Notes under the pieces: generated by a model | Seen by the model: only the letters and a program-made list of their open reading frames with translations | What the model was told of the DNA's origin: nothing | Database searches by the model: none | Source: a bacterium | Lineage (GTDB): Bacteria; Zhuqueibacterota; Zhuqueibacteria; Residuimicrobiales; Krinioviventaceae | Direction: 5' to 3' | Length of the DNA: 64,000 nt | Assembly (NCBI GenBank): GCA_963674595.2 | Contig: CAXXFV010000006.1 | Location: forward strand, 1-64,000 | Position numbers and translations under genes: made by a program | Shown: positions 7,545 through 59,489 of the stretch, one piece after another | Position numbering within the stretch: position 1 is the first letter of the stretch | Layout: the number at the start of each line of letters is the position of its first letter

Positions 7545-7546
7545 AG

Positions 7547-7620
<74 letters not shown>

Positions 7621-10753: not shown

Positions 10754-12661
10754 TTAGTCATCATCAATATCATCATCATTTAAGCAGCGTTTGACTTTTG
10801 TAAGCAATTCATTGTATTTGTATGGTTTATGGATGAATCCTTTTACGCCACTTTTGGAAATTTCAGCTTCTTTAACACTTTGAAGGATGCCGCTTGATAA
10901 TATAACTTTAATATCAGGATTAAGCGCTTGCAGTTTCATAAACGTGCCGTATCCTCCAAGTTTAGGCATCAGCAGGTCCATAATGACCAGTTTTATTTTA
11001 TCCATTTTAGATTTATATATTTTCAGAGCTTCTTCTCCATTATCAGCGGTTATTATCTGGTAACCTCCTTTGGTGAGAATTTCGCTTGCCATATTTCTTA
11101 TTATTTCATCATCGTCAACGAGAAGTATAAATTCATTATTTCCCTGATATGGTTTGCTTATTTTATTTTCGATTAACATTGGAAGAAAAATCGTAAAAAT
11201 TGTTCCCTGATTTAGAGTGCTTTGTACTTCAATAAAACCATCGTGATTTTTAACAATACTATAAACAACAGAAAGTCCCAAACCTGAGCCTTTGCCTCCT
11301 TCTTTTGTTGTAAAAAAAGGTTCAAAGATGTTGTTTAAAATTTGCGGATTAATTCCTTCTCCGGTGTCACGAATTGAGAGTATGGCATATCCACCGGGTG
11401 TGGCTTTCGGATAGGTCGATAAATCTTCAGCAGATAACATCTTGAAGCCGGTTTCAATATAAAGTTTTCCCTTGCCGTTCATGGCGTCTCTGGCGTTGAT
11501 ACACAAATTAATAATTATCTGTTGCAGTTGATTTGCGTCTCCCAGAATGTTGGGTAATGAATTATCAAATATATTATTAATTTCAATATTCTTTGGAAAA
11601 GTGGGTTTTATAATTTGCAATGCTTTTTCAATAATGTTATTCAGGTTCACCGGCATTGCTTCGAGTTTTTCGCCTCTGGCAAAGGTTACAAGTTGTTCTA
11701 CTAGTTGAGTTCCATGGGTGGCATTGTTTTCGATTACATCAATATGCTGAAAAATGGGATGTTTCTCCGGCAAATTCATTTTAATCAATGCAATGCGCCC
11801 TACAATCGAGCAAAGAATATTATTAAAATCATGAGCAATACCACTGGCGAGGGTATTGATACTTTCCATTTTTTGTGTTTGAATTATCTGTTCCTGAAGT
11901 TTTTTTCGATCTGTTATGTTGAAAATATAGCCCCGCAGGCTTTGTAAAGTCCCCATGGCGTCAAATGTTGCAAGCACATTTTCTATTACTGAAACGGGTT
12001 TTTTGTCTATCGTAAAAAGATCATGTTCATACATTATAAATGAGTCATTTTGTTCAAGCTTTTGTAAATATTTCTTAAAGTCATTTTCATCCGGAAATAA
12101 TTCACATAAATTGTGCTCTAATGCTTGTTCTTTATTGCTGAAACCAAAAATTTGTACAAAAGCCAGGTTACAGTCGATAATTGTGCCGTCCTTTAAAGCT
12201 ATAAAATCTCCGGTTAAATCATTTTCGAAAAACTCTCTATATCGTTTTTCACTTTCCCTGAGTTTGCTTTCCATTTTACTTTTATACAATGCCATTTCGA
12301 TGGTTGCGTGCAGCTCACGCTCTTCGAAAGGTTTCACCAGATAAGCCAGCGGTTCTGTTAATTTGGCTTTTTCCAGGGTGTTTTTATCTGTGTGTGCTGT
12401 TAAATAAACAATCCCTGTGTTATAATGGTCTTTTATGTATTGTGCCGCTTCAATTCCGGTCATTTCACCATTTAATATAATATCCATCAGCACCAGATCA
12501 GGTTGGTGTTCCTGAACAATTTTAATGGCTTCTTCACCGGAAAGACCGGTTACCGGGACGTCATATCCAAATGATTTCAGTTTTTCTGCTATATCATAGG
12601 CTACAAGTATTTCATCTTCGATGATAGCTATTTTGATTTTTTCACTTTTCATAACTGACAT
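10754..12661 (-). CDS. Hybrid histidine kinase (REC-PAS-HisKA-HATPase-REC)
   Basis: GIAHDFNNIL H-box, NLCINARDAM, FEPFFTTK, GSGLGL; receiver domains at both ends. Confidence 0.93.
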   Translation of the reverse strand: MSVMKSEKIKIAIIEDEILVAYDIAEKLKSFGYDVPVTGLSGEEAIKIVQEHQPDLVLMDIILNGEMTGIEAAQYIKDHYNTGIVYLTAHTDKNTLEKAKLTEPLAYLVKPFEERELHATIEMALYKSKMESKLRESEKRYREFFENDLTGDFIALKDGTIIDCNLAFVQIFGFSNKEQALEHNLCELFPDENDFKKYLQKLEQNDSFIMYEHDLFTIDKKPVSVIENVLATFDAMGTLQSLRGYIFNITDRKKLQEQIIQTQKMESINTLASGIAHDFNNILCSIVGRIALIKMNLPEKHPIFQHIDVIENNATHGTQLVEQLVTFARGEKLEAMPVNLNNIIEKALQIIKPTFPKNIEINNIFDNSLPNILGDANQLQQIIINLCINARDAMNGKGKLYIETGFKMLSAEDLSTYPKATPGGYAILSIRDTGEGINPQILNNIFEPFFTTKEGGKGSGLGLSVVYSIVKNHDGFIEVQSTLNQGTIFTIFLPMLIENKISKPYQGNNEFILLVDDDEIIRNMASEILTKGGYQIITADNGEEALKIYKSKMDKIKLVIMDLLMPKLGGYGTFMKLQALNPDIKVILSSGILQSVKEAEISKSGVKGFIHKPYKYNELLTKVKRCLNDDDIDDD

Positions 12662-12743
12662 CCTTTATTTTATTCTCCATTATTAAGGTATGGAAGATTT
12701 TTTAAAATGGAAAGAGTTAAAAAAAGTTTTGTACCATAAAAAT

Positions 12744-15700
12744 TTAATTAGGTTTAAAAGGAATGGATATATGAAAAGATGTTCCATTTTCAGTTTTACG
12801 CTCGCTAATTGCATCTATTTGTTCACAAAGCGCTTCTATTAAAAATAAACCTAGCGTTTTTGTTTTATCTACTTCGAGGTTCTCTGGAAATCCAACACCA
12901 TTATCTCTAACAAAAATTTCACACCTTTTATGCATTTTGTTTAATCCAATGGTAATACACCCCTTATTTGTAGAAGGGAACGCATGTTTAATAGCGTTTG
13001 AAACCAGTTCGTTTACTATTAATCCACATGGAATTGCGGTATTAATTGAAAGTGAAATCGGTTCAAGTTGAAATTTAAAACTAATACTTTTAGTATCCAC
13101 ATGATAGGTACTCATCAGGGTTTTAACCAAACCTTTAATATATTCATCAAACTTTATTACGGCCAGGTTTTCACTTTGATAAAGCCTTTCATGTATCATT
13201 GACATAGACTTTATACGATTTTGACTGTCAATAAAACCTTCTAACGCTTTTTCATCTTTAATATGTTGTGATTGTAAAAACAGTAAACTGCTTATAATTT
13301 GCAGGTTGTTTTTTACGCGATGATGAATCTCTTTTAGTAATATTTCTTTTTCTGTTAAAGAGTTTTGAATTTTTTCTTCAACAAGTTTTCTTTCTGTTAT
13401 GTCTCTGGCGATAAATAAAAGACCTTTGATTTCATTATTTTGCTTAATTTGTGAGGCATTTACCTCAATTGGTATTTTTTGCCCTTGTTTGTTGATGAAT
13501 TCCGTTTGAAAGAGATGTGGTTTAAAATTTCCATGACCATTATCATCAAAACCTTGTGTTACCATTTTAACCACTTTATCGCGATTTTCTGGTGTGATTA
13601 GATTGATAACGTCCATATTTTTGATTTCTTCAGGCGTATATTGTGTTAAAGAAACACCTGCTTCGTTTATATAACTTTCATTATTTTCCATGTCATAAAG
13701 TAAAATAACATCGGTGGCCGTTTCAGCAAGTATACGATATTTTTCTTCACTTTTATATAAGGCCTTTTCTGTTTTTCTATGATGTTCAATTTGTTTTTCA
13801 AGCTTGTTATTAATTCGTTTTAAATCCGATGTTCTGTCTTTTACTTTTATTTCAAGTTCGTCATTGGCTTTTTTCAAATCTGCTTTGGCCTGTTCTTTTT
13901 CATGTATTTGGTAATCAAGCTCCATATTCATCATTTCAAGATATTTGTTTCTTTTTTTCGTTCTTAAAAAACATATTTTATGGGTTGTCAGCAGAACAGA
14001 AAATATTATTAGTATAACCAGGGCGCGAAACCAAAAGGTTTGCCAAAATGGAGGGGGGATAATTATGTTGAGAGTTATACCCTCTTCATTCCATTGACCA
14101 TTTCCATTTGCTCCTTTTATATGTAATGTATATTGCCCTGGTTTAACGTGGGCGTAAGATGCCCAATTTTGAGTCCCCACATAGTTCCAGTCTTTTTCCA
14201 GTCCTTCAAGATAATAAGCATATTCGTTATTTTGAGGGGAGAAAAAGTCCAAAACTGTAAAATATATTGTAAACATATTGTCTTTATAGGAAAGTTGTAA
14301 ATTTTTTAATTCGGAGATAGATTGATTAAGAACAATTCTGTCTTTATAGGTTTCATGAGGATAAATTTTATTATTATAAATTTTCAAGCCTGTTAAACAC
14401 ATCACAGGTTTTTGCTGATTAAACGAATCATCATTTGGGAAAAAATAGTTTAAACCGTTTGTACCTCCAAAAAATAGTTCACCGGTACTTGCTTTCATAT
14501 ATGAACCGGAATTAAATTCGTGCCCTTGTAATCCATGTATCTTTTTAAAATGTTTAAAGAGATTATTTTGTTGATCGAAACGAATAATTCCATCGTCTGT
14601 GCTTAGCCATAAATTATAGTTTTCATCTTCAAGAATGCCGTATATTGTGTTGTTCATCAAACCATCTTTGTCGTTGTAGGTTATAAAACGGTCTTGATCT
14701 CTCAAATAGCAACATAAACCGTAATGATGTGTGCCGATCCAAATATTTCCTTTATGGTCTTCACATAATGATAGTATGGAGTTACTGGGGATAGAATTTT
14801 TATCATTTTTATTATTAACAAACTGTCGAACTGCTTTTGTTTGCGGATCATATTCAAAGAGACCTTTTTCATATACAGCTATCCATAATTTACCAAATTT
14901 GTCCTCAATGATTTTAAATATATTCAGATTTTTATATTCTGTTAAATGTGATTCAAAACAATCATTCTTTTTATCATATCTATGTAGATGAACATATGTA
15001 CCAACCCATAGTTCGCCTGATTTTGTCTGAATAATGCTTCGAATTCTGTCGGTGCTTAATCGTGTCGTATCATCTTGATTAGCTGTGTAATGATAAAATT
15101 TATTATTACTAATATCAAAACGGTCCAGACCGGAATGATATGTACCTATCCATAACGTATTGGGATTTGTGGCACACAGAGAAAGTATGTTGTTTGAAGA
15201 AATTGAATTTGGGTTTGATGGATCATTTGTAAAATATGTTATTTTATTTTTTTGACGGTCTAGTTTATTTAGTCCACCTCCAAACGTACCAATCCAAAAT
15301 ATATCATCTGATGTTTGTTCTATGCTATTAACACGGTTATGGTTTAATGAAAGTTTTTTGTTTGGATCTTTGTTTAATAACTGAAATTGTTTAGGTCTGG
15401 TAGATAAATAAGAAAAACCGTTACCTGTGCAAAACCACATGTCACCGATTTTATCTTTAAATATCATAATTATTCTATAATCAAGCTGGGTGTTATCATC
15501 ATTGTAATTTATTAATGTTTCTTTTTCCATATCATATATGAACAAACCACTTCTTGAACCTATCCATAATCTGTTGTTTTTATCGGCATAGGTATAATAA
15601 ACTATAAAAGGATCAGATTGTTTGTTATAATTTTGAGGTAATATTCTTTTTACTTTCATGGATAACGGGTCAATTTTCAAGAGTCCATTATAATATGTTG

Positions 15701-16421
15701 AAATCCACAAATTATGGTTTTTATCTTCCATTATACAGTAGGTTCTTTTTATACTATATTTATCATTATCGCTAAAGTAGAGTTCACATTTATTATTTTT
15801 AATATTTATCTTGTTTAAACCTAAATTAGTACCGATCCACATGTTTTCAAAAGAATCCTGAAATATATAATCAATTCTATTGCCCTGAATATAAATACTA
15901 TCATTTTTAGCAGAAGGAATGCGGGAGAAATTATCCGATTTGGGGTTATAAATGTTTAACCCATTTGCCGTGCCAATCCAAATTTGGTTATTTTTGTCAA
16001 GATAAATTGAATTAATCCTGTTATTACTGATTGTTGTATTTTCAGAAGAGTTTTGGTATCGTTTAAAGGTATGCCGGTACGGATCGAATTTATTTAAACC
16101 ACCCCAATATGTTCCAATCCAAATATGTCCATTATGATCGAGCATTAATGCCCGGATCGCCTGATCACTTAACCCAAGAGAATCAATGGTTGTATTTTGA
16201 AATTTAACTATTTGGTTTCCATCATATTTATTTAAACCATTTTCTGTTCCAAACCATAAAAAGCCGCTGCTATCCTGTATACCACAGTTTACATAATTAT
16301 TTGATAATCCCTGTTCCATGGTATAGTGACTAAAATCAAGGATTTCCGCCTTTAATGGATTTGGATAATATGATAGAAGAGAAATTAAAAAAACGGTAAT
16401 TTTAATTGATTTTTTAAGCAT
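12744..16421 (-). CDS. Membrane sensor kinase: two-component regulator beta-propellers + Y_Y_Y + TM + PAS + HisKA_2/HATPase
   Basis: Repeated W(I/F)GT..GL blades, YAYYLEG..DW, PPFWQTFWF TM, LLKEIHHRVKNNLQ H-box. Confidence 0.92.
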   Translation of the reverse strand: MLKKSIKITVFLISLLSYYPNPLKAEILDFSHYTMEQGLSNNYVNCGIQDSSGFLWFGTENGLNKYDGNQIVKFQNTTIDSLGLSDQAIRALMLDHNGHIWIGTYWGGLNKFDPYRHTFKRYQNSSENTTISNNRINSIYLDKNNQIWIGTANGLNIYNPKSDNFSRIPSAKNDSIYIQGNRIDYIFQDSFENMWIGTNLGLNKINIKNNKCELYFSDNDKYSIKRTYCIMEDKNHNLWISTYYNGLLKIDPLSMKVKRILPQNYNKQSDPFIVYYTYADKNNRLWIGSRSGLFIYDMEKETLINYNDDNTQLDYRIIMIFKDKIGDMWFCTGNGFSYLSTRPKQFQLLNKDPNKKLSLNHNRVNSIEQTSDDIFWIGTFGGGLNKLDRQKNKITYFTNDPSNPNSISSNNILSLCATNPNTLWIGTYHSGLDRFDISNNKFYHYTANQDDTTRLSTDRIRSIIQTKSGELWVGTYVHLHRYDKKNDCFESHLTEYKNLNIFKIIEDKFGKLWIAVYEKGLFEYDPQTKAVRQFVNNKNDKNSIPSNSILSLCEDHKGNIWIGTHHYGLCCYLRDQDRFITYNDKDGLMNNTIYGILEDENYNLWLSTDDGIIRFDQQNNLFKHFKKIHGLQGHEFNSGSYMKASTGELFFGGTNGLNYFFPNDDSFNQQKPVMCLTGLKIYNNKIYPHETYKDRIVLNQSISELKNLQLSYKDNMFTIYFTVLDFFSPQNNEYAYYLEGLEKDWNYVGTQNWASYAHVKPGQYTLHIKGANGNGQWNEEGITLNIIIPPPFWQTFWFRALVILIIFSVLLTTHKICFLRTKKRNKYLEMMNMELDYQIHEKEQAKADLKKANDELEIKVKDRTSDLKRINNKLEKQIEHHRKTEKALYKSEEKYRILAETATDVILLYDMENNESYINEAGVSLTQYTPEEIKNMDVINLITPENRDKVVKMVTQGFDDNGHGNFKPHLFQTEFINKQGQKIPIEVNASQIKQNNEIKGLLFIARDITERKLVEEKIQNSLTEKEILLKEIHHRVKNNLQIISSLLFLQSQHIKDEKALEGFIDSQNRIKSMSMIHERLYQSENLAVIKFDEYIKGLVKTLMSTYHVDTKSISFKFQLEPISLSINTAIPCGLIVNELVSNAIKHAFPSTNKGCITIGLNKMHKRCEIFVRDNGVGFPENLEVDKTKTLGLFLIEALCEQIDAISERKTENGTSFHISIPFKPN

Positions 16422-16615
16422 TTGATATATATGTGGAGATAAGGTTATAGTTAAAATCTTTTCATTATTCCGTTTATTATGTCAGCAAAAGTTATGCCGA
16501 GTCGTTCTAATAATTTAGATGTCTTTATCTTGATATTTTTAAATGTGTTGCCAGGTTTTTAGCCATGCGATTTTTCCTGTTTATTGTTCACGATATTAGT
16601 AATAGTTACCAAGTA

Positions 16616-18460
16616 TTAACTTTTGTTTTTTGGTATTGTGACAGAAACCAGCGTGCCTTTATTTGCTTTTCCTGAAATATCCAACGTTCCCCCACAACTG
16701 CGAACACGTTCTCGCATTCCAATCAATCCTAATGAATCTGAGGCAAAAATTTTATTTGTTTCTATGCCGATTCCATTGTCCTGAATTTCGAGGAATATTT
16801 TATTATTATCTTCATACAGGTGGATAACGACTTTGGTTGCTTTTGAATGTCTGAGAATATTTGTCATTGATTCTTGAAATATTCTGAACAGAATGATTGC
16901 CCTATCCTGTGATATATGAATGCTTTTTGAATCGATAAGCAAGCTTATTTTAAGGTCTGTTCGGTTTTCTAGTTCTTCAACTTGCCATTCTATTGCAGCA
17001 ACAAGACCAAGGTCATCAAGGATAATTGGACGTAGTTCGTATGCGATTTGCTGAACGGTTTTAATCGTTTCATCAATTAATGTTTTTACAGATTTTAGCT
17101 TGTTTTTAATTTCAGAGTCTTGTTGGGCCAGTTTTATATTGAGCCACGAAATATCCATTTTAAGCGCTGTGAGGTTTTGACCCAATTCATCATGAATTTC
17201 GCGGGCTATACGAATACTTTCTTCTTCCTTAACCGCCTGTAAATGGGTTGACAGATTTCGCAACTCCATCTGGGATATTCTTAACTTGTCTTCAGCATTT
17301 TTAATCAGAGTAATATCATCAATCATAAGGATGATATACTGAACTTGTTTAAGGTCTTTTTTTACGACCGAACATGCTGTTTTGGACCAAATAATATTTT
17401 TTTGTTTTGAATAGTACCGGACCTGTAGTTCGATAGTTGTTTCTTTACCAGCTTGAAGTTTTTTTATTCCGTTTTTATAATTTACAAGATCATCGGGATG
17501 TACAAGGTCAAAAATACTTTTATTGGCAAAATCTTGGGCAGTAAAACCGGTCATATCTTCAAATGAGCTGTTAAGGGCACCGATTGAAAGGTCTGCGTCA
17601 AGTACGATGATGCCGACACTGACAGATTGAAAGATGGTTCGGAAACGTAATTCACTTTCCTTAAGGGCATTTTCAATTTGTTTTTGTTTTGTAATATCCC
17701 TTGATATGCTGCCAAGCATAAATCCTTTTTCAGTCTCAATCGGGAAAAAGACGGCTTGTATAATACGCTTTGATGAATTTTTATCAATAATATCATATTC
17801 ACGTGGTTCTTTGATCCAGGGACCTGTTCCGGTTTTTAATCCAACAGAAAATGTTTTTTTGAAATAGTCATACGTATCGCTAAGAGGACCAATTGTAGGG
17901 CATATTTTTGAAAATTTTTCCCAAGCTTTTGCGCCCATGACATCTGAACGTGCCATCCCTGTTATGCGTTCCTGCCCCGGGCTCCATTCAATTATGTCAC
18001 CTTCTTCGTTCATTAAAACAATGCCATCTACTGATTCCTCGACAATTTGACGCAGTTTTTTTTCATTCCAGGCCAGTTGATTTTCAATTTTACTTTTATA
18101 TAAAGCCATTTGAATAGCTATATGTAACTCTCTGCCTTCAAAGGGTTTAACTATATAACCAAACGGCTCTATAAGTTTTGCTCTTTTTAGAGTTTCATCA
18201 TCAGAATAAGCGGTTAAAAAGATTATAGGTTTATTAAATCGAGTGCGGATTATTTTCCCTGTTTCTATACCGTCAGGTTTCCCCTTTATAACAATATCCA
18301 TAATAACAATATCAGGTTGGTGCTGTTCAATACTTCTTAACGCAGCATCACCAGATTCTACCATATCACATATTGAATAGCCATAATCCTGTAGTTTAAA
18401 TTTAATATCACTGGCGATAATTGCGCTGTCTTCAACTACAAGAATTTTAACCGTGGCCAT
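16616..18460 (-). CDS. REC-PAS-PAS-HisKA_3 (NarX/UhpB-type) histidine kinase
   Basis: IAREIHDELGQ, LRPIILDDLGL, QESMTNILRHS, GLIGMRER. Confidence 0.92.
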   Translation of the reverse strand: MATVKILVVEDSAIIASDIKFKLQDYGYSICDMVESGDAALRSIEQHQPDIVIMDIVIKGKPDGIETGKIIRTRFNKPIIFLTAYSDDETLKRAKLIEPFGYIVKPFEGRELHIAIQMALYKSKIENQLAWNEKKLRQIVEESVDGIVLMNEEGDIIEWSPGQERITGMARSDVMGAKAWEKFSKICPTIGPLSDTYDYFKKTFSVGLKTGTGPWIKEPREYDIIDKNSSKRIIQAVFFPIETEKGFMLGSISRDITKQKQIENALKESELRFRTIFQSVSVGIIVLDADLSIGALNSSFEDMTGFTAQDFANKSIFDLVHPDDLVNYKNGIKKLQAGKETTIELQVRYYSKQKNIIWSKTACSVVKKDLKQVQYIILMIDDITLIKNAEDKLRISQMELRNLSTHLQAVKEEESIRIAREIHDELGQNLTALKMDISWLNIKLAQQDSEIKNKLKSVKTLIDETIKTVQQIAYELRPIILDDLGLVAAIEWQVEELENRTDLKISLLIDSKSIHISQDRAIILFRIFQESMTNILRHSKATKVVIHLYEDNNKIFLEIQDNGIGIETNKIFASDSLGLIGMRERVRSCGGTLDISGKANKGTLVSVTIPKNKS

Positions 18461-18593
18461 GTATGGATCCCATTTTTTTACATTTTTATTTAACCGACTA
18501 GATAATGTATTTTATGAAATTATTAACTAAAAGCAAGTGTTTTCTTTAGCAAAAAGTTTTATTGCAAAATCTGTTGTATTTATGAAAAAAAAC

Positions 18594-18630
18594 TTGATTA
18601 TTGCTATTAAAATCCTATATTCCATATATT
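18594..18630 (+). promoter_or_regulatory. Candidate sigma70 promoter of the aro operon leader
   Basis: TTGATT (18594) or TTGCTA (18601) with TATATT at 18616 or 18625. The region is AT-rich, so the placement is ambiguous. Confidence 0.4.
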
Positions 18631-18669
18631 AATATTATAACAAAAGATTAAGGAAATTTTTTAGATACA

Positions 18670-18732
18670 ATGAATTACTATTTTGCAAAATATTACTTTT
18701 TTTATTTTAGCTGGAGCAAAGGGATGGATTAG
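18670..18732 (+). CDS. Aromatic amino acid attenuator leader peptide MNYYFAKYYFFYFSWSKGMD
   Basis: Direct translation; 10 of 20 codons aromatic (5 Tyr, 4 Phe, 1 Trp); ends 100 nt upstream of the aro operon and overlaps the attenuator hairpins. Confidence 0.9.
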   Translation: MNYYFAKYYFFYFSWSKGMD

Positions 18733-18807
18733 CTGATCCTCAAAATATTTTAAATAAAGCTGATCTAACCCCGTTGCCTCTTTTATCGTCGTAACGGGTT
18801 TTTTTTT
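18721..18807 (+). promoter_or_regulatory. Transcription attenuator (antiterminator plus terminator)
   Basis: GGGATGGATTAGCT (18721-18734) pairs with AGCTGATCTAACCC (18758-18771). The latter overlaps the 5' arm of terminator CCCGTTGC...GTAACGGG-T9 (18770-18807). Confidence 0.88.
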
Positions 18808-18831
18808 GATTACATTTAATGGAGGTCATTC

Positions 18832-19095
18832 GTGGAGCTTACAAAGCTGCGGGAAGGAATAGATATTATTGATCAAAATATTTTACGGATGCTCAATGAA
18901 CGGGCAGAACTGGCAGAAAAAATAGGTATTGAAAAAAAGAAACAAAACCTGCCAATAACTAATGAAAACAGAGAGCAGCAGGTGATACAAAAATTAATTA
19001 AATTAAATAACGGTCCGTTGTCAGATGAAGCCATTGAAAGAATTTTTAACGAAATTATTTTTTGCTGTCGAACTCTTCAAAAAGATATATCATAG
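18832..19095 (+). CDS. Monofunctional chorismate mutase (AroQ-class, CM_2)
   Basis: LREGIDIIDQNILRMLNERAEL..IG..K, NENRE; GTG start with GGAGG SD. Confidence 0.9.
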   Translation: MELTKLREGIDIIDQNILRMLNERAELAEKIGIEKKKQNLPITNENREQQVIQKLIKLNNGPLSDEAIERIFNEIIFCCRTLQKDIS

Positions 19096-19132
19096 AGTTT
19101 ATAATTAATAACTTTTTATTTAGGAGCAAGTT

Positions 19133-20146
19133 TTGGTCATTGTTATGAAGGAAAACGCTACGGGTCAAATGATTGATTCTGTAGCTGAAAAGTTGGAAAA
19201 ATTTGGATTTGATATCCATAAAGTCGTAGGGGTCAATCGTACTATTTTAGGCGCAATAGGCGATAAGCGTGGTATTGATCTTCGGGAATTTGAAGTGATG
19301 GAGGGAGTGCATGAGGTACTTCGAATTACCGAACCCTACAAGCTAGCCAGCAGGACTTTTCATCCTGAAAATACTGTTATAGATGTTAAAGATGCAAGTT
19401 TTGGCGGTGAACGTATCAGTGTAATGGCCGGTCCCTGTTCTATAGAAAGTGAAGAACAGCTTTTTACTATAGCCCGGGAAGTTAAAAAATCCGGGGCAAC
19501 TGTTTTAAGAGGCGGGGCTTTTAAACCAAGAACTTCTCCTTATGCTTTTCAGGGTCTTGGTAAGGAAGGACTGCAAATTTTACAGGCTGCCGGAAACGAA
19601 TTGCAAATGGCAACAATTTCTGAAATTATGGAAATCAGCCAGTTGGATCTGATGGTAGAATATTCCGACATTTTGCAAATCGGCGCAAGGAATATGCAAA
19701 ATTTTTCATTACTTCGGGAAATAGGCCGTGTTAAGAAGCCTATTTTATTAAAGCGTGGAATGGCTGCTACAATAGAAGAATTGTTGATGGCGGCTGAATA
19801 TATTATGGCAGGTGGTAACTATAATGTTATTTTATGTGAACGTGGCATTCGCACGTTTGAAAATTATACACGAAATACCATGGACATTTCTGCTATTCCT
19901 GTAACCAAAAAACTTAGCCATTTACCCATTATTGCCGACCCGAGCCACGGAACAGGACGGCGCGATAAGGTTGGTCCGATGGCCAGAGCTGCAATTGCCG
20001 CCGGTGGTGACGGTCTTGCTATTGAAGTGCATCATGATCCTGATAAAGCCTTGTCTGATGGCGCCCAGTCATTATATCCAAATCAGTTTATGCGATTGAT
20101 GGAAGAAGTAAGAATGATTGCCTGGGCCATTGGACGTAAAGTGTGA
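19133..20146 (+). CDS. aroF: DAHP synthase type I-beta with N-terminal regulatory domain
   Basis: AGPCSIE, GGAFKPRTSPY, QIGARNMQNF, ADPSHGTG. Confidence 0.95.
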   Translation: MVIVMKENATGQMIDSVAEKLEKFGFDIHKVVGVNRTILGAIGDKRGIDLREFEVMEGVHEVLRITEPYKLASRTFHPENTVIDVKDASFGGERISVMAGPCSIESEEQLFTIAREVKKSGATVLRGGAFKPRTSPYAFQGLGKEGLQILQAAGNELQMATISEIMEISQLDLMVEYSDILQIGARNMQNFSLLREIGRVKKPILLKRGMAATIEELLMAAEYIMAGGNYNVILCERGIRTFENYTRNTMDISAIPVTKKLSHLPIIADPSHGTGRRDKVGPMARAAIAAGGDGLAIEVHHDPDKALSDGAQSLYPNQFMRLMEEVRMIAWAIGRKV

Positions 20147-20159
20147 AAGTGAGTTATAT

Positions 20160-21269
20160 ATGGGCGAAAGTGACCGTTTTAAAAGAATTGCAATTATCGG
20201 TGTCGGACTTATAGGAGGTTCGCTGGGACTTGCCTTAAAAAGAAAAGGGCTGCAGGGAACAATTATCGGTGTCGATTCTCAGGATGTTTTGGAAAAAGCA
20301 AAAAAAAGTAAAATAGTCGATGAATGTTATACAAAAGATAAATTAAAAGAAGCCGTTTCCAATGCTGATTTGATTTTTATATGTTCACCTATCGATGAAA
20401 TTGTTAAATTGATACAAACGATTGGCAAGTATGTAAAACCCAATACACTGGTTACGGATGTCGGCAGTACCAAAAGAAAAATCGTTGAAGCGGCAAATAT
20501 TCATTTACCGGCTGATTGTGACTTTATTGGCGGACACCCGATGGCGGGATCCGAGTTTCGGGGCGTAGAGGCTGCTGATCCGTTTTTGTTTGAAAATACA
20601 ACCTATGTGTTGACACCCAGCAGACCTGTTAGTGAAAGCACGCGCAAAGCGATTGGTGAACTTTTGGAACGAATCGGCGCCAAAGTGTTGCTGCTTTTAC
20701 CGCGTTTACACGATGAAATTGCGGCTGCTGTCAGCCATCTTCCACAGATGGCGGCGGTAGCAATGATGAATTTGGTGGCAGGCAAACAATCTGAAAGTCC
20801 CCATTTTTTAAAAATGGCGGCCGGTGGATTCAGGGATATGACACGTATCGCTTCAAGTCCATTTGTAATTTGGGAAGACATTCGTAATACGAATGCGGAT
20901 ATGATTTCAGAGTACATTGACTTGTATATTGACGAACTGAAAAAAGTTAAATCTATCCTGGATGGAAAAGAATTAGAGTCTTACTTTAAAGATTCTGCAA
21001 GGAACCGGTTATCCATTCCAAAAGACACAAAAGGTTTTTTAAGACCACAATATGATATTTCCATTGCCGTTGTTGACACACCTGGAATTATAGCAAAAAT
21101 TGCCACTATTCTTGCAAACCATAATATAAATATTAAAGATATTGAAGTCCTTAAAATAAGAGAAGATGAAGGAGGTACAATTCGGTTATCATTTTCAAGT
21201 GAACATGATCGCGAAACAGCTATTGAATTATTGCAAAAAAATCAATTTGAATGCAGAAAGCGAGACTGA
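20160..21269 (+). CDS. tyrA: Prephenate dehydrogenase with C-terminal ACT domain
   Basis: GVGLIGGS, TDVGSTK, GGHPMAGSE, VSHLP, GGFRDMTRIASS; ACT-like DTPGIIA...INIKDI. Confidence 0.93.
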   Translation: MGESDRFKRIAIIGVGLIGGSLGLALKRKGLQGTIIGVDSQDVLEKAKKSKIVDECYTKDKLKEAVSNADLIFICSPIDEIVKLIQTIGKYVKPNTLVTDVGSTKRKIVEAANIHLPADCDFIGGHPMAGSEFRGVEAADPFLFENTTYVLTPSRPVSESTRKAIGELLERIGAKVLLLLPRLHDEIAAAVSHLPQMAAVAMMNLVAGKQSESPHFLKMAAGGFRDMTRIASSPFVIWEDIRNTNADMISEYIDLYIDELKKVKSILDGKELESYFKDSARNRLSIPKDTKGFLRPQYDISIAVVDTPGIIAKIATILANHNINIKDIEVLKIREDEGGTIRLSFSSEHDRETAIELLQKNQFECRKRD

Positions 21270-21270
21270 A

Positions 21271-22554
21271 ATGAGTGATATAACCATTAGGAAAAGCGCT
21301 TCTATTCTTGGCAAAATTAAGGTACCAGGGGATAAATCGATCTCACACCGGGCATTGATGTTTTCGTCTTTAGCTGAAGGTGTTTCCAATATCAAAGGTT
21401 TATCATTGGCCCAGGATGTGATGAACACGAAAAAATGTATGAAAGCACTGGGCATAACAATTGAAAAGAAAAAAGATATTCATATCGTTCATGGAAATGG
21501 TACTGATGGTTTAAAAGCTCCGGCCAAAGTTTTGGATGCCGGTAATTCCGGTACGACGATTCGTTTGCTTTCCGGTATTTTGGCTGCTCAGAATTTTACA
21601 GCGACAATAACCGGTGACGAATCTCTGCGACAACGGCCAATGCGGCGCATTATGGAGCCTTTGGAAAATATGGGAGCCCGTATAACAGCCGAAAATCACC
21701 GTGCCCCGATTACAATTCTGGGCGGTCCGTTAAAAGCCATTGATTTTGCTTCATCTGTTGCCAGTGCACAGGTTAAATCATGTGTTTTACTTGCCGGATT
21801 GTTTGCTAAAGGTCTTACCCGTGTTACCGAACCGGCCCTGTCCCGTGACCATACGGAACGGATGCTGAAAGAATTTGGCGTTCGAATTAGTTATAATAAT
21901 GGAATGACCGGTTTGTTTGGTCCTGCATCTTTAAAAGCTGTTGACCTTGATATACCCGGCGATGTTTCTGCTGCTGCATTTTTTCTGATAGCTGCCTGTT
22001 TATTGCCGAATTCCAAAATAGAGATTGAAAATGTCGGTACCAATCCGACGCGTACCGGGTTTTTGGATGCATTAGCAGCCATGGGTGCCTCAATATTTTC
22101 TATGGAAACAGCCGAAATTAATAATGAACCGCGGGCTACGCTGTCTGCTAAAACATCAGCTTTAAAAGCGACCACTTTTAGCGGGACCCTCATTCCCAGG
22201 ATTATTGATGAAGTTCCGATTTTGGCTATTGCGGCAACCCAGGCAAACGGAACAACAATTATTAAAGATGCCGGTGAACTTCGTGTTAAAGAGAGTGACA
22301 GGATTACAACCGTAACCGAAAATTTGAAAAAAATGGGCGCTAATATTCGCGAAAATAAAGACGGTATGACGATTATCGGACCTTCCAAATTAAAAGGTGC
22401 TGTAATTAATTCCTATGGTGATCATCGCATTGCCATGTCGTTTGCGGTTGCTGGTATGCTTGCCGAAGGTGAAACGACTATAAAGAACGTGGATTGTGTC
22501 AACACCTCTTTTCCTGACTTTTTTAGCTTGCTGGAATCGGTGAAACATGATTAG
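21271..22554 (+). CDS. aroA: EPSP synthase
   Basis: PGDKSISHR, DAGNSGTT, SAQVKS, ELRVKESDRI, DHRIAM. Confidence 0.97.
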   Translation: MSDITIRKSASILGKIKVPGDKSISHRALMFSSLAEGVSNIKGLSLAQDVMNTKKCMKALGITIEKKKDIHIVHGNGTDGLKAPAKVLDAGNSGTTIRLLSGILAAQNFTATITGDESLRQRPMRRIMEPLENMGARITAENHRAPITILGGPLKAIDFASSVASAQVKSCVLLAGLFAKGLTRVTEPALSRDHTERMLKEFGVRISYNNGMTGLFGPASLKAVDLDIPGDVSAAAFFLIAACLLPNSKIEIENVGTNPTRTGFLDALAAMGASIFSMETAEINNEPRATLSAKTSALKATTFSGTLIPRIIDEVPILAIAATQANGTTIIKDAGELRVKESDRITTVTENLKKMGANIRENKDGMTIIGPSKLKGAVINSYGDHRIAMSFAVAGMLAEGETTIKNVDCVNTSFPDFFSLLESVKHD

Positions 22555-23425
22555 GGCCACGAATAAAGTTTTTGCTGTTATAGGTGATCCGATTCACCAT
22601 AGTTTGTCTCCTGTTATGCAAAACTGGATGATTGAATATTTCAATTTACCGGCCGTATATACTGCTTTTCATGTGAAAAACGAAAATCTGGAAAAGACAG
22701 TTGAAGCGATGCGGGCAATGGGCATTTCCGGGTTGAATGTAACCGTCCCGCATAAAGAGGCTGTTTTACCATTTGTTAATGAAATAGCTGACGATACTAA
22801 AATGCTGAAAGCCGCTAATACCTTAAAAAATGTAAACGGTGTTATTAAAGCTTTTACAACAGACAGTTATGGATTTATCGAATCTCTTGGAAAAAACAGG
22901 CAAAGATTTGATAATAGTTCGGTGGTTATGTTTGGCGCCGGAGGCGCGGCAAAATCAATCGCTTATGCGCTTGCGAAATTAAAAGTGAAATCGGTGACAG
23001 TGTTGGATATTGATCAGCAGCGTGTTGATCATTTATCCAAACAATGTTCCGCTTATGGTATCAGTCAGGTAACCGGGCTTTTATCGCAACAACAGGATTT
23101 GACCTTTTTAAAAGATACCGATGTTATTATCAACACATCACCTGTTGGTATGTATCCGAATATACAGGCTTGTGTAATTGATGATTTTTCAATGATCTCT
23201 GATAGACATTTTGTTTACGATTTGGTCTATAATCCCGGAAAAACAAAGTTGCTGGCCGAAGCGGAAAAACAAGGCGCTGCCATTCAAAACGGCCTGGAGA
23301 TGTTGATATTTCAGGGACTGGAGTCTTTAAGAATTTGGATGGACAATAAAGATTTAATATTAAGTAAAGATGCATTAACTGAATTGAAACAAATTATGAT
23401 GGCGGAACTTTTACGTGATGAATAA
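22547..23425 (+). CDS. aroE: Shikimate dehydrogenase
   Basis: HSLSP, NVTVPHK, GAGGAA, DLVYNP. Confidence 0.95.
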
Positions 23426-24626
23426 AATACGATTTTTAACGGCCGGTGAGTCCCATGGACAGGCTTTGAATACGATTATTGAGGGAATACCGGCTGGTTT
23501 GGAATTATATGAAACAGATATTGCTAAAGAATTAAAAAGACGGCAGCGCGGATATGGCCGCGGCGGACGTATGCAGATTGAAAAAGATTATGCTAAAATA
23601 TTATCCGGAGTCCGGTATGGCCGTACATTGGGAAGTCCTATTTCATTATTAATAGAAAATAAGGACTGGCCAAACTGGGTCGAAAAAATGTCGGTAGAAC
23701 CGGTGGAAAATCCGGTGCCTAAATTGCAAATGCCCCGACCCGGTCATGCTGACTTTGCCGGGATGGTTAAATATCAGCACGATGATTTAAGAAATTTACT
23801 GGAACGTTCATCAGCCCGTGAAACAGCTATGCGAGTGGCAGCCGGGGCTGTTGCCAGAAAACTTTTATCAGAATTTAATATCCGTATTTACGGGCATGTT
23901 ATCCGTATCGGTTCTGTTGAATCAGAAACAACTGCAATGGATTTGTTGACCGGCCCAAAATCACGGTTTGAAAAACAGTTGCAGACATGGGAACAAATGA
24001 TGGCTGTGGCGGAAAAATCCGAACTTGCCTGTTTCGATGAAAAAGCCACGCAAAAAATGATACCCATAATCGATGCGGCAAAAGAAAGGGGAGATACTCT
24101 TGGCGGCATATTTGAAATTGTTGCTGTGAATGTACCGGTTGGTTTGGGAAGCCATATACACTGGGACCGTAAACTGGATGGAGCGATTGCCGGCGCCATG
24201 ATGAGTATCAATGCCATGAAATCCGTTGAAATCGGATTGGGCGCAGGTGTTGCTGAAATTCCGGGCAGCCGGGTCCATGATCAAATATATTATGATGAAA
24301 AAGATAGTTTTTATCGAAATACAAATCATGCCGGCGGGGTAGAGGGAGGCATGAGTAATGGCGAACCAATTATTGTTCGTGTTGCCATGAAACCCATACC
24401 TACATTGTCCCAGCCATTAAATTCTGTTGACGTGGGTACAAAGCAGGCGAAACAGGCTTTTAGTGAACGTTCTGATGTGTGTGCCGTTCCGGCAGCGACT
24501 GTTGTCGGCGAAGCGATGCTGGCGCTGGTTTTGGCAAATGCTCTCTGTGATAAAGTTGGCGGTGATTCCGTAGCGGAAATGAAAAGAAATGCGGGAGGTT
24601 TACCAAGTGTACCTTTGGGATGGTAA
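23415..24626 (+). CDS. aroC: Chorismate synthase
   Basis: [43 protein letters not shown]. Confidence 0.97.
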
Positions 24627-25143
24627 AAATATCTATTTTATGGGGTTCATGGCGACCGGTAAAACCCATGTAGGGAGCTCATTGGCAAATTTGCTGGGCT
24701 GGCCTTTTCATGATACGGACACGTTAATCGAGGAAAAAGCAGGAAAAACAATTACCGAGATTTTTGCGGATGACGGCGAAAAACATTTTCGTGACCTGGA
24801 AACAGCCGTTATTGCTGATGTGGCTAAAGTAAAACACCATGTTATTGCCCTTGGGGGCGGTGCTGTTATTCGTCCTGAAAATTTTGACATGATAAAAAAA
24901 AGCGGTATAACAATATGCCTGTCTGCTTCTGAAGATGTTATTTTTAACAGAATTATTCAAAAACAACATCGGCCTCTGATGGCTTCATACAGTCCGGATG
25001 AACAGCGCGCACGGATAAAAAATATGCTGAATGAGCGAAAGCCATATTATGAAAAAGCAGACTATGTGTTTGAGAGTTGCGACGATGTTTCAGCGCACCG
25101 GCTGGCAGAAAAAATATTTTCCATACTCAGAGACGAAATATGA
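24607..25143 (+). CDS. aroK: Shikimate kinase
   Basis: GFMATGKT P-loop, [21 protein letters not shown] 24607 has GGAGG 8 nt upstream. Confidence 0.95.
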
Positions 25144-26234
25144 TATTAAATGTAGAACTCGATCAACCCTATCCGATATATATCGATCATGATAATATTT
25201 CCAAACTCCCTGATCTGCTGAAAAAGCTCAATGCCGAACAGGAATTGTTTGTTATAACCGATGAAAATGTCAGTCGTTATCATATTGATAAATTAATCAA
25301 TGTTTTAAAAAATAGTAATCTGGATGCTAAAATTATAACCGTTAAACCCGGTGAGTCATCCAAGTCGCTTGAAACGGCTAATGAAATTTACACACAGCTC
25401 ATTCAATACAAAGCCACCCGAAATGCCGTTATTCTGGCCTTTGGCGGCGGCGTTGTGGGTGATCTGGCTGGTTATATCGCAGCAACCTATTTAAGAGGTG
25501 TGAGATTTGTGCAAATCCCGACGACTATTTTAAGTCAGGTAGACAGCAGTGTCGGCGGCAAAGTCGGTATCAACCATCAATTGGGAAAAAACTTGATCGG
25601 TGCGTTTTATCAGCCATTGTTTGTTTTGATTGATTCCATGTTTTTAAAAACACTACCGCCGCGTGAAATTATCGCCGGAATGGGTGAGGTCGTCAAGTAT
25701 GGATTTATCTGGGACGAGTTATTTCTGGAGAAAATTCAGCAGAATTGGGCGTCGCTTATTGAATTAAGTGATAGGGAGCTTTTGGAAAATATCCTTTACC
25801 GGTGTTGTGAAATAAAGGCGGATGTTGTCGCCCAGGATGAACGTGAATCCGGATTGCGTGCTATATTGAATTTTGGTCATACCATCGGTCATGCTCTGGA
25901 GGCTGCCACACATTATAAACATTTTCTTCATGGTGAGGCTGTTATACACGGCATGAAAGGCGCTCTTTATTTGTCCCTTTGTTCCGGTTCATTATCGGAT
26001 GAAAAATATAATCACTATTTACAGTTTATGAACACGTTACCTGTTCCTGCTGTACCGGATTTCCTGGATGTTGAAACTGTGAAAAACGCCATGCTGCGGG
26101 ACAAAAAAAGGTCTGCAAAAGGTCAGTTATGGGTGCTTGTAAACAAAATCGGTAAAGCTGTGCTTAAAAACAATCTGGATGAGGCACATGTTGAACAGGC
26201 CATCGAACTGATTTTAAATAACGGACAACAATAA
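25140..26234 (+). CDS. aroB: 3-dehydroquinate synthase
   Basis: GGGVVGDLAG, PTT..QVDSSVGGK, KNLIGAFYQP, LNFGHTIGHALE. Confidence 0.97.
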   Translation: MILNVELDQPYPIYIDHDNISKLPDLLKKLNAEQELFVITDENVSRYHIDKLINVLKNSNLDAKIITVKPGESSKSLETANEIYTQLIQYKATRNAVILAFGGGVVGDLAGYIAATYLRGVRFVQIPTTILSQVDSSVGGKVGINHQLGKNLIGAFYQPLFVLIDSMFLKTLPPREIIAGMGEVVKYGFIWDELFLEKIQQNWASLIELSDRELLENILYRCCEIKADVVAQDERESGLRAILNFGHTIGHALEAATHYKHFLHGEAVIHGMKGALYLSLCSGSLSDEKYNHYLQFMNTLPVPAVPDFLDVETVKNAMLRDKKRSAKGQLWVLVNKIGKAVLKNNLDEAHVEQAIELILNNGQQ

Positions 26235-26250
26235 TCATTTGGAGGTCTCT

Positions 26251-26694
26251 TTGTATCATATTCTTGTTATTCACGGTCCTAATCTGAACTTGCTGGGTGA
26301 ACGGGAACCCGGCGTTTACGGTCATTTGAACCTGCAGGACGTGAACAGATACATTGAACAAAAAGCCTCTGACCTGAATGTTACGGTTGAATTTTTTCAA
26401 TCAAACCATGAGGGGCATTTAATAGATTTTATTCATAATAACAGGCACGATGCTCAGGGGATTGTCATCAATCCCGGCGCGCTGACTCATTACAGTTACA
26501 GCCTGAGGGATGCGATTGCCGGTGTTCAGTTACCCACGATTGAAGTGCATTTATCGGATATTCATTCCCGGGAAGACTTTAGAAAAATATCCGTGATTCG
26601 TGAGGTGTGTATCAATCAAATCTCGGGTCTGGGGCTCGACAGCTATTTAACAGGATTGGAAAATCTTGTGTCATATCTTGATGAAAAAAAGTAA
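26251..26694 (+). CDS. aroQ: Type II 3-dehydroquinate dehydratase
   Basis: HGPNLNLLGEREP, QSNHEG, NPGALTHYS, EVHLSDIHSRE. TTG start after GGAGG. Confidence 0.96.
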   Translation: MYHILVIHGPNLNLLGEREPGVYGHLNLQDVNRYIEQKASDLNVTVEFFQSNHEGHLIDFIHNNRHDAQGIVINPGALTHYSYSLRDAIAGVQLPTIEVHLSDIHSREDFRKISVIREVCINQISGLGLDSYLTGLENLVSYLDEKK

Positions 26695-50347: not shown

Positions 50348-51272
50348 ATGAAAATTGTTTTTATGGGAACACCTGATTTTGCTGTTCCCTCTTTAAAAAT
50401 TCTTGCTCAACACCATCAGGTATGCGCTGTTGTCACAGTGCCGGATAAACCTGCGGGCCGCGGGCAAAAAATGCGTCAAAGCGACATTAAAAAAACGGCG
50501 ATTGCTTTAAACATTCCGGTCCTTCAGCCGGAAAGTCTCAAGGACCCGGATTTTATCGAGCAATTAAAGTCTTTTAATGCAGAACTGTTTTTTGTTGTCG
50601 CTTTTCGAATTTTACCGGCAGTTGTTTTTACGCTTCCTTCCAAAGGAACGATCAACCTGCATGCATCGCTGCTGCCTTCTTTTAGAGGAGCGGCGCCGAT
50701 TAACTGGGCTCTGATAAACGGTGAAAAGCAGACCGGTGTGACCACATTTTTCATTGAAGAAAAAGTCGATACCGGTAAAATATTGCTGCAGCAATCCCTT
50801 GACATTACACCAAATATGACGGCCGGAGAGCTGCATGATGCTTTAGCAGAGCTGGGCGCAGAGGTTGTTTTAAAACACCGTGAACGGTATTGATAATGAA
50901 ACGCTATCAGCCGTAATACAGGAAGGTACGGTTACCCAGGCCCCGAAAATTACCAAAGAGATATGTGAAATTGATTGGAGCAAATCTGCCCTTGATATTC
51001 ATAATTTTATTCGAGGATTGTCGCCTTATCCGGCTGCTTTTACCTGGTACAAAAATAAAAATCTGAAAATTACAAAGTCTTTGCTGCATAACCAAGATAA
51101 ATCCGGTCAGCCTGGTGAAATTGTAAACATTGAAAAAAATGGGCCTGTTTATATTCAAACAGGGCAGGGTATTGTTGCTGTTTTGGAAATCAAGCCTGAA
51201 GGGAAAAAAATCATGTCTGCGGCTGATTTTGTTCGGGGGTATCGTCTTGAACCCGGCGAGACTTTGGGCTGA
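50348..51272 (+). CDS. fmt: Methionyl-tRNA formyltransferase, frameshift near 50867-50876
   Basis: MGTPDFA, NLHASLLP..RGAAPI; C-terminal APKITKE..IDW, RGLSPYP in the second ORF. Removing one base in TTTTAAAA restores the frame. Confidence 0.93.
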
Positions 51273-58586: not shown

Positions 58587-58762
58587 AAAATTCACTCGTT
58601 GATATGCGGTTAAATGTTTAAGTCAGGTAATATAAACATTGTGCATAATAATTGCAAGTTGAAATAAAGGACAGGAGTTGTGTTTTTATATTTTTAAGCA
58701 GACTAGGTGCTAACTATTTTGATGTTATATGTATCACTTCACGGCCAATAACATATTTGCAT

Positions 58763-58795
58763 AAAAAACCTCAAGGGATTTGTCAGCCCTTGAGG
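58763..58795 (-). terminator. Terminator after the ABC exporter operon
   Basis: CCTCAAGGG / CCCTTGAGG stem plus T6 on the minus strand. Confidence 0.8.
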
Positions 58796-58822
58796 AAAAA
58801 TATTATATTTTTTAAATTCTGA

Positions 58823-59489
58823 TTATTCTTCTTTTTCTAACCAGCCATCCAGCAAATGAATAATTCTGTCTCCGTAGGCGGCTTTTTGTTCGTCATGCGT
58901 AACCTGTATGATTGTAGTCCCTTCACTATTTAATTGTTTCAGCATATCCATTATCTCAAATCCCTGTTTCGAATTCAAATTTCCGGTCGGTTCATCAGCC
59001 AGGATCAGTTTGGGATTTATAATAAGCGCGCGCTATGGCCACCAACTGTTGCTGTCCGCCGGAAAGCTGGCTTGGAAAGAGGTCTTTTTTAGCGACCATA
59101 TTAAATCTATCCAGTATATCGGCAATCAGGCTTTTCCGTTCTGATGTTTTGACTTTTTTGTAAAGTAAGGGTGTTTCAAGGTTTTCATACACGGTCAAAT
59201 CATCGATAAGATGGTATTGTTGAAACACAAATCCGATATATTGCTGATGTAACAGGGTCCTTTTTTTCTCGTTGAGTGAATGGACCGGTTCCTCAAAAAA
59301 GTAATATTCCCCTCCCGAGGCATCATCCAGCATGCCGATAATATGCAGCAACGTCGATTTTCCGGCACCTGAAGGTCCCATAATTGTAACAAACTCGCCC
59401 TGGTTAATTGTCAGGTCTATATTTCGTAAAACCCATGTTTTTACAAATTTATTGGAATAGTATTTTTCTATTTCTTTCAACTTTATCAT
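58823..59489 (-). CDS. ABC transporter ATP-binding protein (LolD/MacB type), frameshift near 59020-59033
   Basis: GPSGAGKST, LSGGQQQ. After the shift the reading continues NPKLILADEPTGNL...QVTHD...EKEE*. Confidence 0.9.

Follow-up and report, generated by a model that had tools for sequence, protein, structure and literature searches.

Does a leader peptide control the common pathway of aromatic amino acid synthesis in a bacterium of the candidate division KSB1/Zhuqueibacterota, and if so, which amino acids does it sense? This question is raised by a stretch of 64,000 nucleotides of contig CAXXFV010000006.1, in the following called the window. Here, a nine-gene operon is preceded by a very short upstream open reading frame (uORF) crowded with aromatic codons and by an intrinsic terminator. 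According to our analysis, the leader is probably a ribosome-mediated attenuator that responds to the charging of tRNA-Tyr and tRNA-Phe and thereby controls the operon for chorismate mutase, DAHP synthase, TyrA and the shikimate pathway. An earlier, sequence-only reading of the locus had proposed attenuation of the trpL/pheL type. This idea stood as far as its parts are concerned, i.e., an aromatic uORF, a terminator and an alternative helix that contains the stop codon, whereas the antiterminator had to be redrawn as a pairing of 18713-18734 with 18758-18781.

The uORF extends on the + strand from the ATG at 18670 to the TAG at 18730-18732 and encodes, in 20 codons, the peptide MNYYFAKYYFFYFSWSKGMD. 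Its five Tyr, four Phe and one Trp are exactly those counted in the sequence-only reading, and a longer form is excluded by a TAA in frame at 18649-18651. Within codons 3 to 13, which form the control-codon run at 18676-18708 (+ strand), nine of eleven specify Tyr or Phe (Y3, Y4, F5, Y8, Y9, F10, F11, Y12 and F13). We expressed this clustering as an aromatic score, defined as the largest count of F, Y or W in any 10-residue window of a small open reading frame (ORF). With a score of 8, the uORF ranks highest among 1692 distinct small ORFs (8 to 45 codons) on both strands of the window.

Base composition alone favours codons of this kind. The leader and intergenic region has a G+C content of 25%, compared with 38% for the window as a whole, and thus favours TTY and TAY codons. 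One rival explanation builds on this bias: the switch would be real, but it would report the general translation status or the coupling of transcription and translation, such that read-through follows whenever the leading ribosome slows down, and the many aromatic codons would simply result from the high U/A content of the leader. When the AT-rich intergenic region 18461-18831 was shuffled (n=5000), a score of at least 7 indeed appeared in 50 shuffles; the observed score of 8, however, was reached in three only. We regard this explanation as improbable, for reasons that include the related loci discussed below.

Downstream of the uORF, the intrinsic terminator already noted by the sequence-only reading is present at 18770-18807 (+ strand). 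Its 8-bp stem is formed by CCCGTTGC (18770-18777) and GTAACGGG (18791-18798), which enclose a 13-nt loop and are followed by U9 at 18799-18807; the energy of the hairpin alone is -10.9 to -12.1 kcal/mol. The terminator ends 24 nt before the GTG (18832) of the chorismate mutase gene, the first of the nine-gene operon, and this position bears out the proposal that control is exerted ahead of the whole chorismate pathway. It cannot belong to the gene 5' of the leader (16616-18460, a hybrid sensor kinase by Pfam), because that gene is divergent and lies on the opposite strand.

Which structure competes with the terminator? The sequence-only reading had named a helix of 18721-18734 with 18758-18771. 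This helix can be confirmed, with 13 of its 14 positions paired, two of them as G-U, and a mismatch between A18724 and A18768. Its supposed role, to sequester the terminator, could not be upheld: the overlap comprises two nucleotides only (C18770-C18771), and both structures occur together in the minimum-energy fold. As an antiterminator the 14-nt helix was rejected, since in combination with a 6-bp terminator it reaches -21.8 kcal/mol, which equals the energy of the inner hairpin plus the full terminator. A small 5-bp hairpin at 18726-18739, also part of the earlier proposal, can be drawn, but RNAfold prefers a slightly shifted version of -4.9 kcal/mol.

Folding of the transcript up to position 18790, where the 3' arm of the terminator is not yet made, yields an extended helix with a predicted energy of -22.2 kcal/mol. 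In this helix, 18713-18719 pair with 18774-18781 and 18721-18723 with 18770-18772, and both are stacked on an inner hairpin 18725-18734/18758-18767. The resulting antiterminator (+ strand) has a 5' arm at 18713-18734, composed of an outer part (18713-18723) and an inner part (18725-18734) with the TAG stop, and a 3' arm at 18758-18781, composed of an inner part (18758-18767) and an outer part (18770-18781) that covers the 5' arm of the terminator. Six of the eight nucleotides of the terminator 5' arm (18770-18777) are thereby sequestered. Among 1000 dinucleotide shuffles each, 16 (70 nt upstream) and 12 (from the ATG) were as stable and sequestered as much of the arm. The extended antiterminator and the combination of inner hairpin and full terminator are near-equal in energy (-22.2 versus -21.8 kcal/mol), and hence the outcome must depend on the order of folding and on the position of the ribosome. 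The parts of the switch, their mutual exclusivity and their geometry are thus established at the level of sequence and predicted folding.

The trp leader of E. coli also has an anti-antiterminator (1:2) or pause hairpin; in the leader of the window no convincing counterpart was detected, and a weak AU hairpin at about 18685-18711 is all that shows up in the folds. Such hairpins are not universal among leader-peptide attenuators. The RNA elements are therefore three, not four. For lack of a convincing 1:2-type structure, naked RNA would default to read-through, and any failure of translation would have the same effect, which is a second point in favour of a switch that merely reports general translation.

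In order to relate ribosome position to RNA structure, we used a footprint model, in which the footprint is assumed to end 13 nt downstream of the position where the A-site codon begins, and the RNA is masked codon by codon and refolded. With the A site at codons 3 to 11 (Y3, Y4, F5, Y8, Y9, F10 and F11), the pre-terminator fold has -22.2 to -21.3 kcal/mol, six of the eight nucleotides of the arm are sequestered, and the terminator forms with an equilibrium probability of 0.41-0.70. At Y12 and F13 the situation is borderline, the fold dropping to -17.0 kcal/mol with two of eight nucleotides sequestered and terminator probabilities of 0.94 and 0.89, respectively. With the A site at W15 (UGG 18712-18714), a fold of -9.8 kcal/mol remains, none of the eight nucleotides is sequestered, and the terminator probability is 0.96; with the ribosome at the stop codon, the corresponding values are 0.0 kcal/mol, none of eight and 0.95. 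The antiterminator is thus predicted to stay intact for A-site codons 1 to 11 and to be lost from codon 14 on, and the terminator probability, 0.29-0.70 at first, rises to 0.95 once the ribosome is at the stop codon. From these results of the model, the Tyr and Phe codons, in particular codons 3 to 11, are placed such that a stall would leave the antiterminator free, and the Trp codon is not. The element as modelled reads Tyr and Phe but not Trp, whose codon is too close to the antiterminator.

Taken together, these elements suggest the following course of events. Transcription would start near 18628, as deduced from a putative sigma-70-like promoter at 18594-18621 (+ strand; TTGATT, 16-nt spacer, TATATT), which matches the consensus at 9 of 12 positions in a consensus scan. 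A ribosome would then translate the 20-codon uORF close behind RNA polymerase, possibly with the help of a Shine-Dalgarno sequence AAGGAAA at 18650-18656 (+ strand), 13 nt from the ATG. With an ample supply of Tyr and Phe, it would proceed as far as the TAG at 18730-18732 and cover approximately 18718-18743, i.e., the 5' arm of the antiterminator. With this arm covered, the hairpin and U9 (18770-18807) would form and transcription would end 24 nt before the chorismate mutase gene. If charging of either tRNA-Tyr or tRNA-Phe is low, a stall at codons 3 to 11 would leave 18713-18734 free to pair with 18758-18781; this pairing would lock the 5' arm of the terminator, and the polymerase would read through into the operon. 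Translation of the uORF, stalling of the ribosome and read-through in response to starvation are what we infer from this arrangement.

If the element is functional, its architecture should recur in relatives. Homologues of the window's DAHP synthase reach up to 81% identity, and many from KSB1 lie at 70-81% (protein search). Those that carry an organism name stem nearly all from candidate division KSB1, the exceptions being one from Candidatus Kuenenbacteria and others named merely "bacterium". Along the same line, all organism-named homologues of RadA (58-70% identity) are assigned to KSB1 or Candidatus Zhuqueibacterota. A search of genome contigs with the DAHP synthase gave at least 80 loci with a total of 1.11 Mb, mostly from Acidobacteriota; among the matches listed, a single one, L001, is labelled KSB1.

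L001 encodes a DAHP synthase 76% identical to that of the window and has all nine operon genes in the same order. Its leader is much more G+C-rich. Nonetheless, it contains a uORF MFAVNWFSGFYFYYFFAERRRDVG, which starts with ATG, has a Shine-Dalgarno sequence AAGGAAG 6 nt upstream and attains an aromatic score of 8 in its best 10-residue window. The UAG stop lies within the 5' strand of the inner hairpin of the antiterminator. The extended helix has a predicted energy of -41.2 kcal/mol, compared with -37.4 kcal/mol when the terminator is enforced; it pairs three of the seven nucleotides of the terminator 5' arm and flanks the remainder on both sides. Among 1000 shuffles each, 0 and 8 did as well. 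The terminator is a 7-bp hairpin GCCCACU/AGUGGGC with U9 and ends 13 nt before the chorismate mutase gene. Furthermore, the promoter of the window aligns with TTGTAA-17 nt-TATATT at the same relative position in L001. The architecture is thus found in the one KSB1 locus examined.

The window and L001 do not have the peptide sequence itself in common; only its composition and position are kept, as is typical of leader peptides. The leaders can also be aligned only poorly at the nucleotide level. The match is therefore one of architecture and composition, and it fits a homologous element that evolves fast. A common ancestor of the two elements is no more than a possibility, because L001 was missed when the antiterminator of the window served as the covariance model. 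For a mere report of general translation the comparison is unfavourable, since L001 keeps an aromatic run of 8 in 10 at the equivalent place in spite of its much higher G+C content.

On both strands of the 80 loci, L001 included, only eight small ORFs with a score of at least 7 were counted, and two of these (L001 and L030) lie directly upstream of an aroF operon. In L027 (7706-7870) and L030 (7639-7770), both labelled Bacteroidetes, homologous uORFs of 43 to 54 codons precede an aroF-tyrA pair. They start approximately 10 nt past a conserved promoter TTGCAC-17-TATATT and end with an aromatic run plus FP(L/Q)RG (L030, ...WFYSYYYFPLRGK; L027, ...FGYFYFPQRGI), and their last codons form a UUCCCC...GGGGAA hairpin. 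After the uORF, no clear U-tract terminator was found in either L027 or L030. In the fold of L027, uORF sequence pairs with the region just before the ribosome-binding site of aroF, which may hint at translational control.

L051 (7652-7970, labelled Clostridiaceae) has a strong, near-consensus promoter and a uORF of 57 codons containing YYFYFYWGFYFF (...NIYYFYFYWGFYFFSVSYFAW...). A strong terminator, AGGAGACUC/GAGUCUCCU followed by a U run (U9 in the sequence, 8 U in the folded stretch), is located 3' of the uORF, and a segment within the uORF can pair with the terminator 5' arm. The genes downstream are aroF-tyrA-aroA-pheA-aroC-aroB-aroE. The three loci resemble the window in that a uORF rich in Tyr, Phe and Trp lies directly upstream of aroF-tyrA or, in L051, of a whole shikimate operon; they differ by their longer uORFs (43 to 57 codons) and have no alignable sequence in common with it. 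The aromatic runs before aroF in these three loci again argue against codons that are a by-product of base composition.

In four other loci from Acidobacteriota and Calditrichaceae (L015, L016, L020 and L023), the chorismate mutase-aroF pair directly adjoins an upstream ORF on the same strand, and hence they offer no leader for comparison. By eye only, this ORF resembles tryptophan synthase alpha (trpA). If it is trpA, aroF may sit in a trp-type operon there.

The sequence-only reading had further proposed that one leader integrates all three aromatic amino acids. Such a three-input integrator would be in keeping with the single Trp codon of the window and with L001, L027, L030 and L051, whose leaders also contain one or two Trp codons. 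In L001, moreover, the Trp codon W6 lies upstream of the aromatic run, and a stall at this codon leaves the antiterminator intact in the footprint model. In the window, by contrast, the UGG at 18712-18714 abuts the 5' arm of the antiterminator, such that a ribosome stalled at W15 covers this arm and the terminator still forms. Neither pheA nor trp genes were found anywhere in the window by NCBIfam, and the operon itself is without trp genes. For the window, we consider sensing of all three amino acids unlikely and dropped it in favour of Tyr and Phe.

A number of observations weigh against attenuation by Tyr and Phe, some of which lend themselves to other explanations. With regard to translation of the uORF, the spacing of 13 nt between its Shine-Dalgarno sequence and the ATG is longer than usual. 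Furthermore, the uORF contains a run of seven T at 18701-18707, and two apparent frameshifts elsewhere in the window hint at indel errors. Read from the sequence, one T fewer would shift the stop to 18734-18736 within the same helix arm, and one T more would let the ORF stop at about 18708-18710, just 5' of the antiterminator arm. In both cases the antiterminator would remain masked by a ribosome that terminates there.

The poor spacing could also speak for a different kind of switch, in which the uORF is untranslated and a small-molecule ligand or an RNA-binding protein works the RNA; the inner hairpin, with its AU-rich loop of 23 nt, might then provide the binding site. Rfam gives no relevant match, T-box and riboswitches included, in 17500-20000 at E up to 10; at the gathering score, a tRNA is the sole match in the whole window, and no leader family is found. 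Likewise, L001, L027 and L030 have no match at E up to 1. In addition, L001 has retained a uORF with an ATG and with a stop placed within the helix, but not the nucleotide sequence, which fits a translated element better than a ligand pocket. A protein- or ligand-driven switch thus appears quite improbable.

With regard to the RNA structure, the terminator is modest (approximately -11 to -12 kcal/mol), its loop of 13 nt is large, and a simple terminator scan did not call the hairpin (loop >8 nt). The leader folded as a whole shows no unusual stability (z = -1.48), and the naked RNA of the window forms the terminator with an equilibrium probability of 0.29-0.70; as modelled, the switch depends on folding kinetics. 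The modest terminator and the low z-score could suit a locus without any regulation, where the uORF is a chance ORF or the gene of a small hydrophobic protein with its own leaky terminator. However, the gaps between terminator and chorismate mutase gene, which measure 24 nt in the window and only 13 nt in L001, leave no room for a promoter, and a consensus scan of the 24 nt revealed no promoter-like site; transcription of the operon must therefore pass the terminator. Together with a peptide whose composition and position, but not sequence, are kept in L001, this makes the absence of regulation highly improbable. What could bypass the attenuator in part is a promoter-like site at 19076-19105 (TTCAAA-18-TATAAT, matching at 10 of 12 positions), located where the chorismate mutase gene ends and shortly ahead of the DAHP synthase gene, which, if active, could feed aroF and the genes downstream independently.

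With regard to conservation, the comparison with close relatives relies on one genome, and two sequences give no covariation statistic. RNAalifold on a MAFFT alignment of the window and L001 was uninformative, as the alignment was structurally wrong. When the covariance model, based solely on the antiterminator of the window, was searched against the window and the 80 loci, it found itself with 114.4 bits; the next-best hits had E values of 0.41 to 1, and L001 was not among the hits with E up to 10. A protein search with a 45-aa upstream-extended ORF of L001 returned no candidate. Among the 80 loci listed, 76 show no comparable uORF. At a threshold of at least 5 aromatic residues in 10, the upstream regions (10 of 80) are not enriched over a reverse-complement control (12 of 80). 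As this lenient threshold shows no enrichment, only the strong aromatic runs are meaningful.

Can the window and L001 then be regarded as a family? The two might represent an undescribed, fast-diverging family of Tyr/Phe attenuators in KSB1/Zhuqueibacterota, in which a single ribosome-sensed switch would govern the entire route to chorismate together with chorismate mutase and TyrA, and, seen along with L027, L030 and L051, aromatic leaders of aroF might be recurrent and probably convergent across phyla. For this wider proposal we see the scales evenly balanced, whereas attenuation by Tyr and Phe in the window itself remains the probable reading.

What the attenuator would gate is a complete route to chorismate. 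The nine genes of the operon are encoded on the + strand at 18832-26694, tightly packed or overlapping, and were assigned by Pfam and NCBIfam. A type II chorismate mutase (18832-19095), with GTG start and a Shine-Dalgarno sequence GGAGG at 18821-18825, is followed by DAHP synthase with a ferredoxin-like N-domain (19133-20146), prephenate dehydrogenase with an ACT domain (TyrA; 20118-21269), EPSP synthase (21166-22554), shikimate dehydrogenase (22547-23425), chorismate synthase (23415-24626), shikimate kinase (24589-25143), DHQ synthase (25077-26234), and type II dehydroquinase (26239-26694). The output of the operon is chorismate, prephenate and the precursor of Tyr.

The region 10754-18460 on the - strand holds three large genes for sensor kinases, which are oriented divergently from the aro operon. 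One of them encodes 1225 aa with Reg_prop/Y_Y_Y beta-propeller repeats, and the adjoining one a receiver-PAS-HisKA_3 hybrid kinase. A single tRNA-Met (CAT anticodon) is located at 7546-7620 on the - strand. Regarding the two apparent frameshifts, fmt (methionyl-tRNA formyltransferase, 50348-51272) is split into overlapping ORFs at 50348-50893 and 50880-51272, the first matching the N-terminal and the second the C-terminal half of the fmt model; the split apparently reflects a frameshift, due to either an assembly indel or a pseudogene. The second one affects an ORF for an ABC-transporter ATPase (approximately 58600-59489, - strand) of 164 aa, the remainder of which, including LILADEPT, is found in another frame.

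If the attenuator is real, a candidate phylum known from metagenomes only uses classical ribosome-coupled attenuation, and a tight coupling of transcription and translation is implied in this lineage. Entry into the common aromatic pathway, and the pathway as a whole, would then be controlled via tRNA charging and not by a repressor, and a Tyr-dominated leader would be added to a class in which sensing of Tyr is rarely documented. If the family should be confirmed as well, aromatic leader peptides at aroF would not be confined to Corynebacterium and Acholeplasma. For the annotation of metagenome-assembled genomes, the arrangement provides a simple signature of unannotated regulation ahead of aroF: a uORF rich in aromatic codons, the stop of which is part of a helix that competes with a U-tract terminator. 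Our understanding of the attenuation mechanism itself is unchanged; the type of control is well known, the lineage is new.

How does the element compare with known systems? Attenuators have been predicted in Bacteroidetes/Chlorobi, and an attenuator of aroF in E. coli was reportedly hypothesised in 1980. Our literature searches found no description of such an element in KSB1 and none that joins leader peptide, transcription attenuation, Bacteroidetes and shikimate. With pheL-pheA and trpL-trp of E. coli, the window shares a short uORF rich in codons for the product, a stop codon so positioned that the terminating ribosome would mask the antiterminator, and a terminator that closely precedes the first gene. 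In contrast to these, it has no match to an Rfam leader, three RNA elements rather than four and no 1:2 hairpin; it is predicted to read two amino acids, and its target is the common pathway with chorismate mutase and TyrA rather than a terminal branch. Control codons for several amino acids in one peptide are found in the thrL and ilvL leaders of E. coli, which resemble the window in this respect and differ in amino acids, operons and sequences. Since multi-amino-acid leaders are classical and leader peptides of aroF are in print for C. glutamicum and Acholeplasma, the novelty as framed by the sequence-only reading was overstated.

Two further systems act at aroF and are compared here by their published descriptions. 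In C. glutamicum, aroR, which precedes the aroF operon, is described as encoding a leader peptide that contains Phe-Tyr-Phe (Neshat 2014, cited in PMC11802643), and the citing account, a review, reports that it responds to limitation of Phe but not of Tyr (PMC11802643). As in the window, a leader with Phe and Tyr codons controls a DAHP synthase operon; according to that account, however, aroR belongs to Actinobacteria, carries a Phe-Tyr-Phe triplet instead of a run with nine Tyr or Phe in eleven codons, and precedes an operon of other content. The uORFC-13-1 motif of the Breaker lab is a predicted Phe-coding uORF next to an intrinsic terminator upstream of aroF in Acholeplasma (PMC8632094). 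It shares with the window a uORF with Phe codons immediately upstream of a terminator before aroF. As far as its published description goes, the motif occurs in Mollicutes and environmental sequences and has a U run coding for at least one Phe, with no Tyr-rich run reported, whereas the leader of the window is rich in Tyr.

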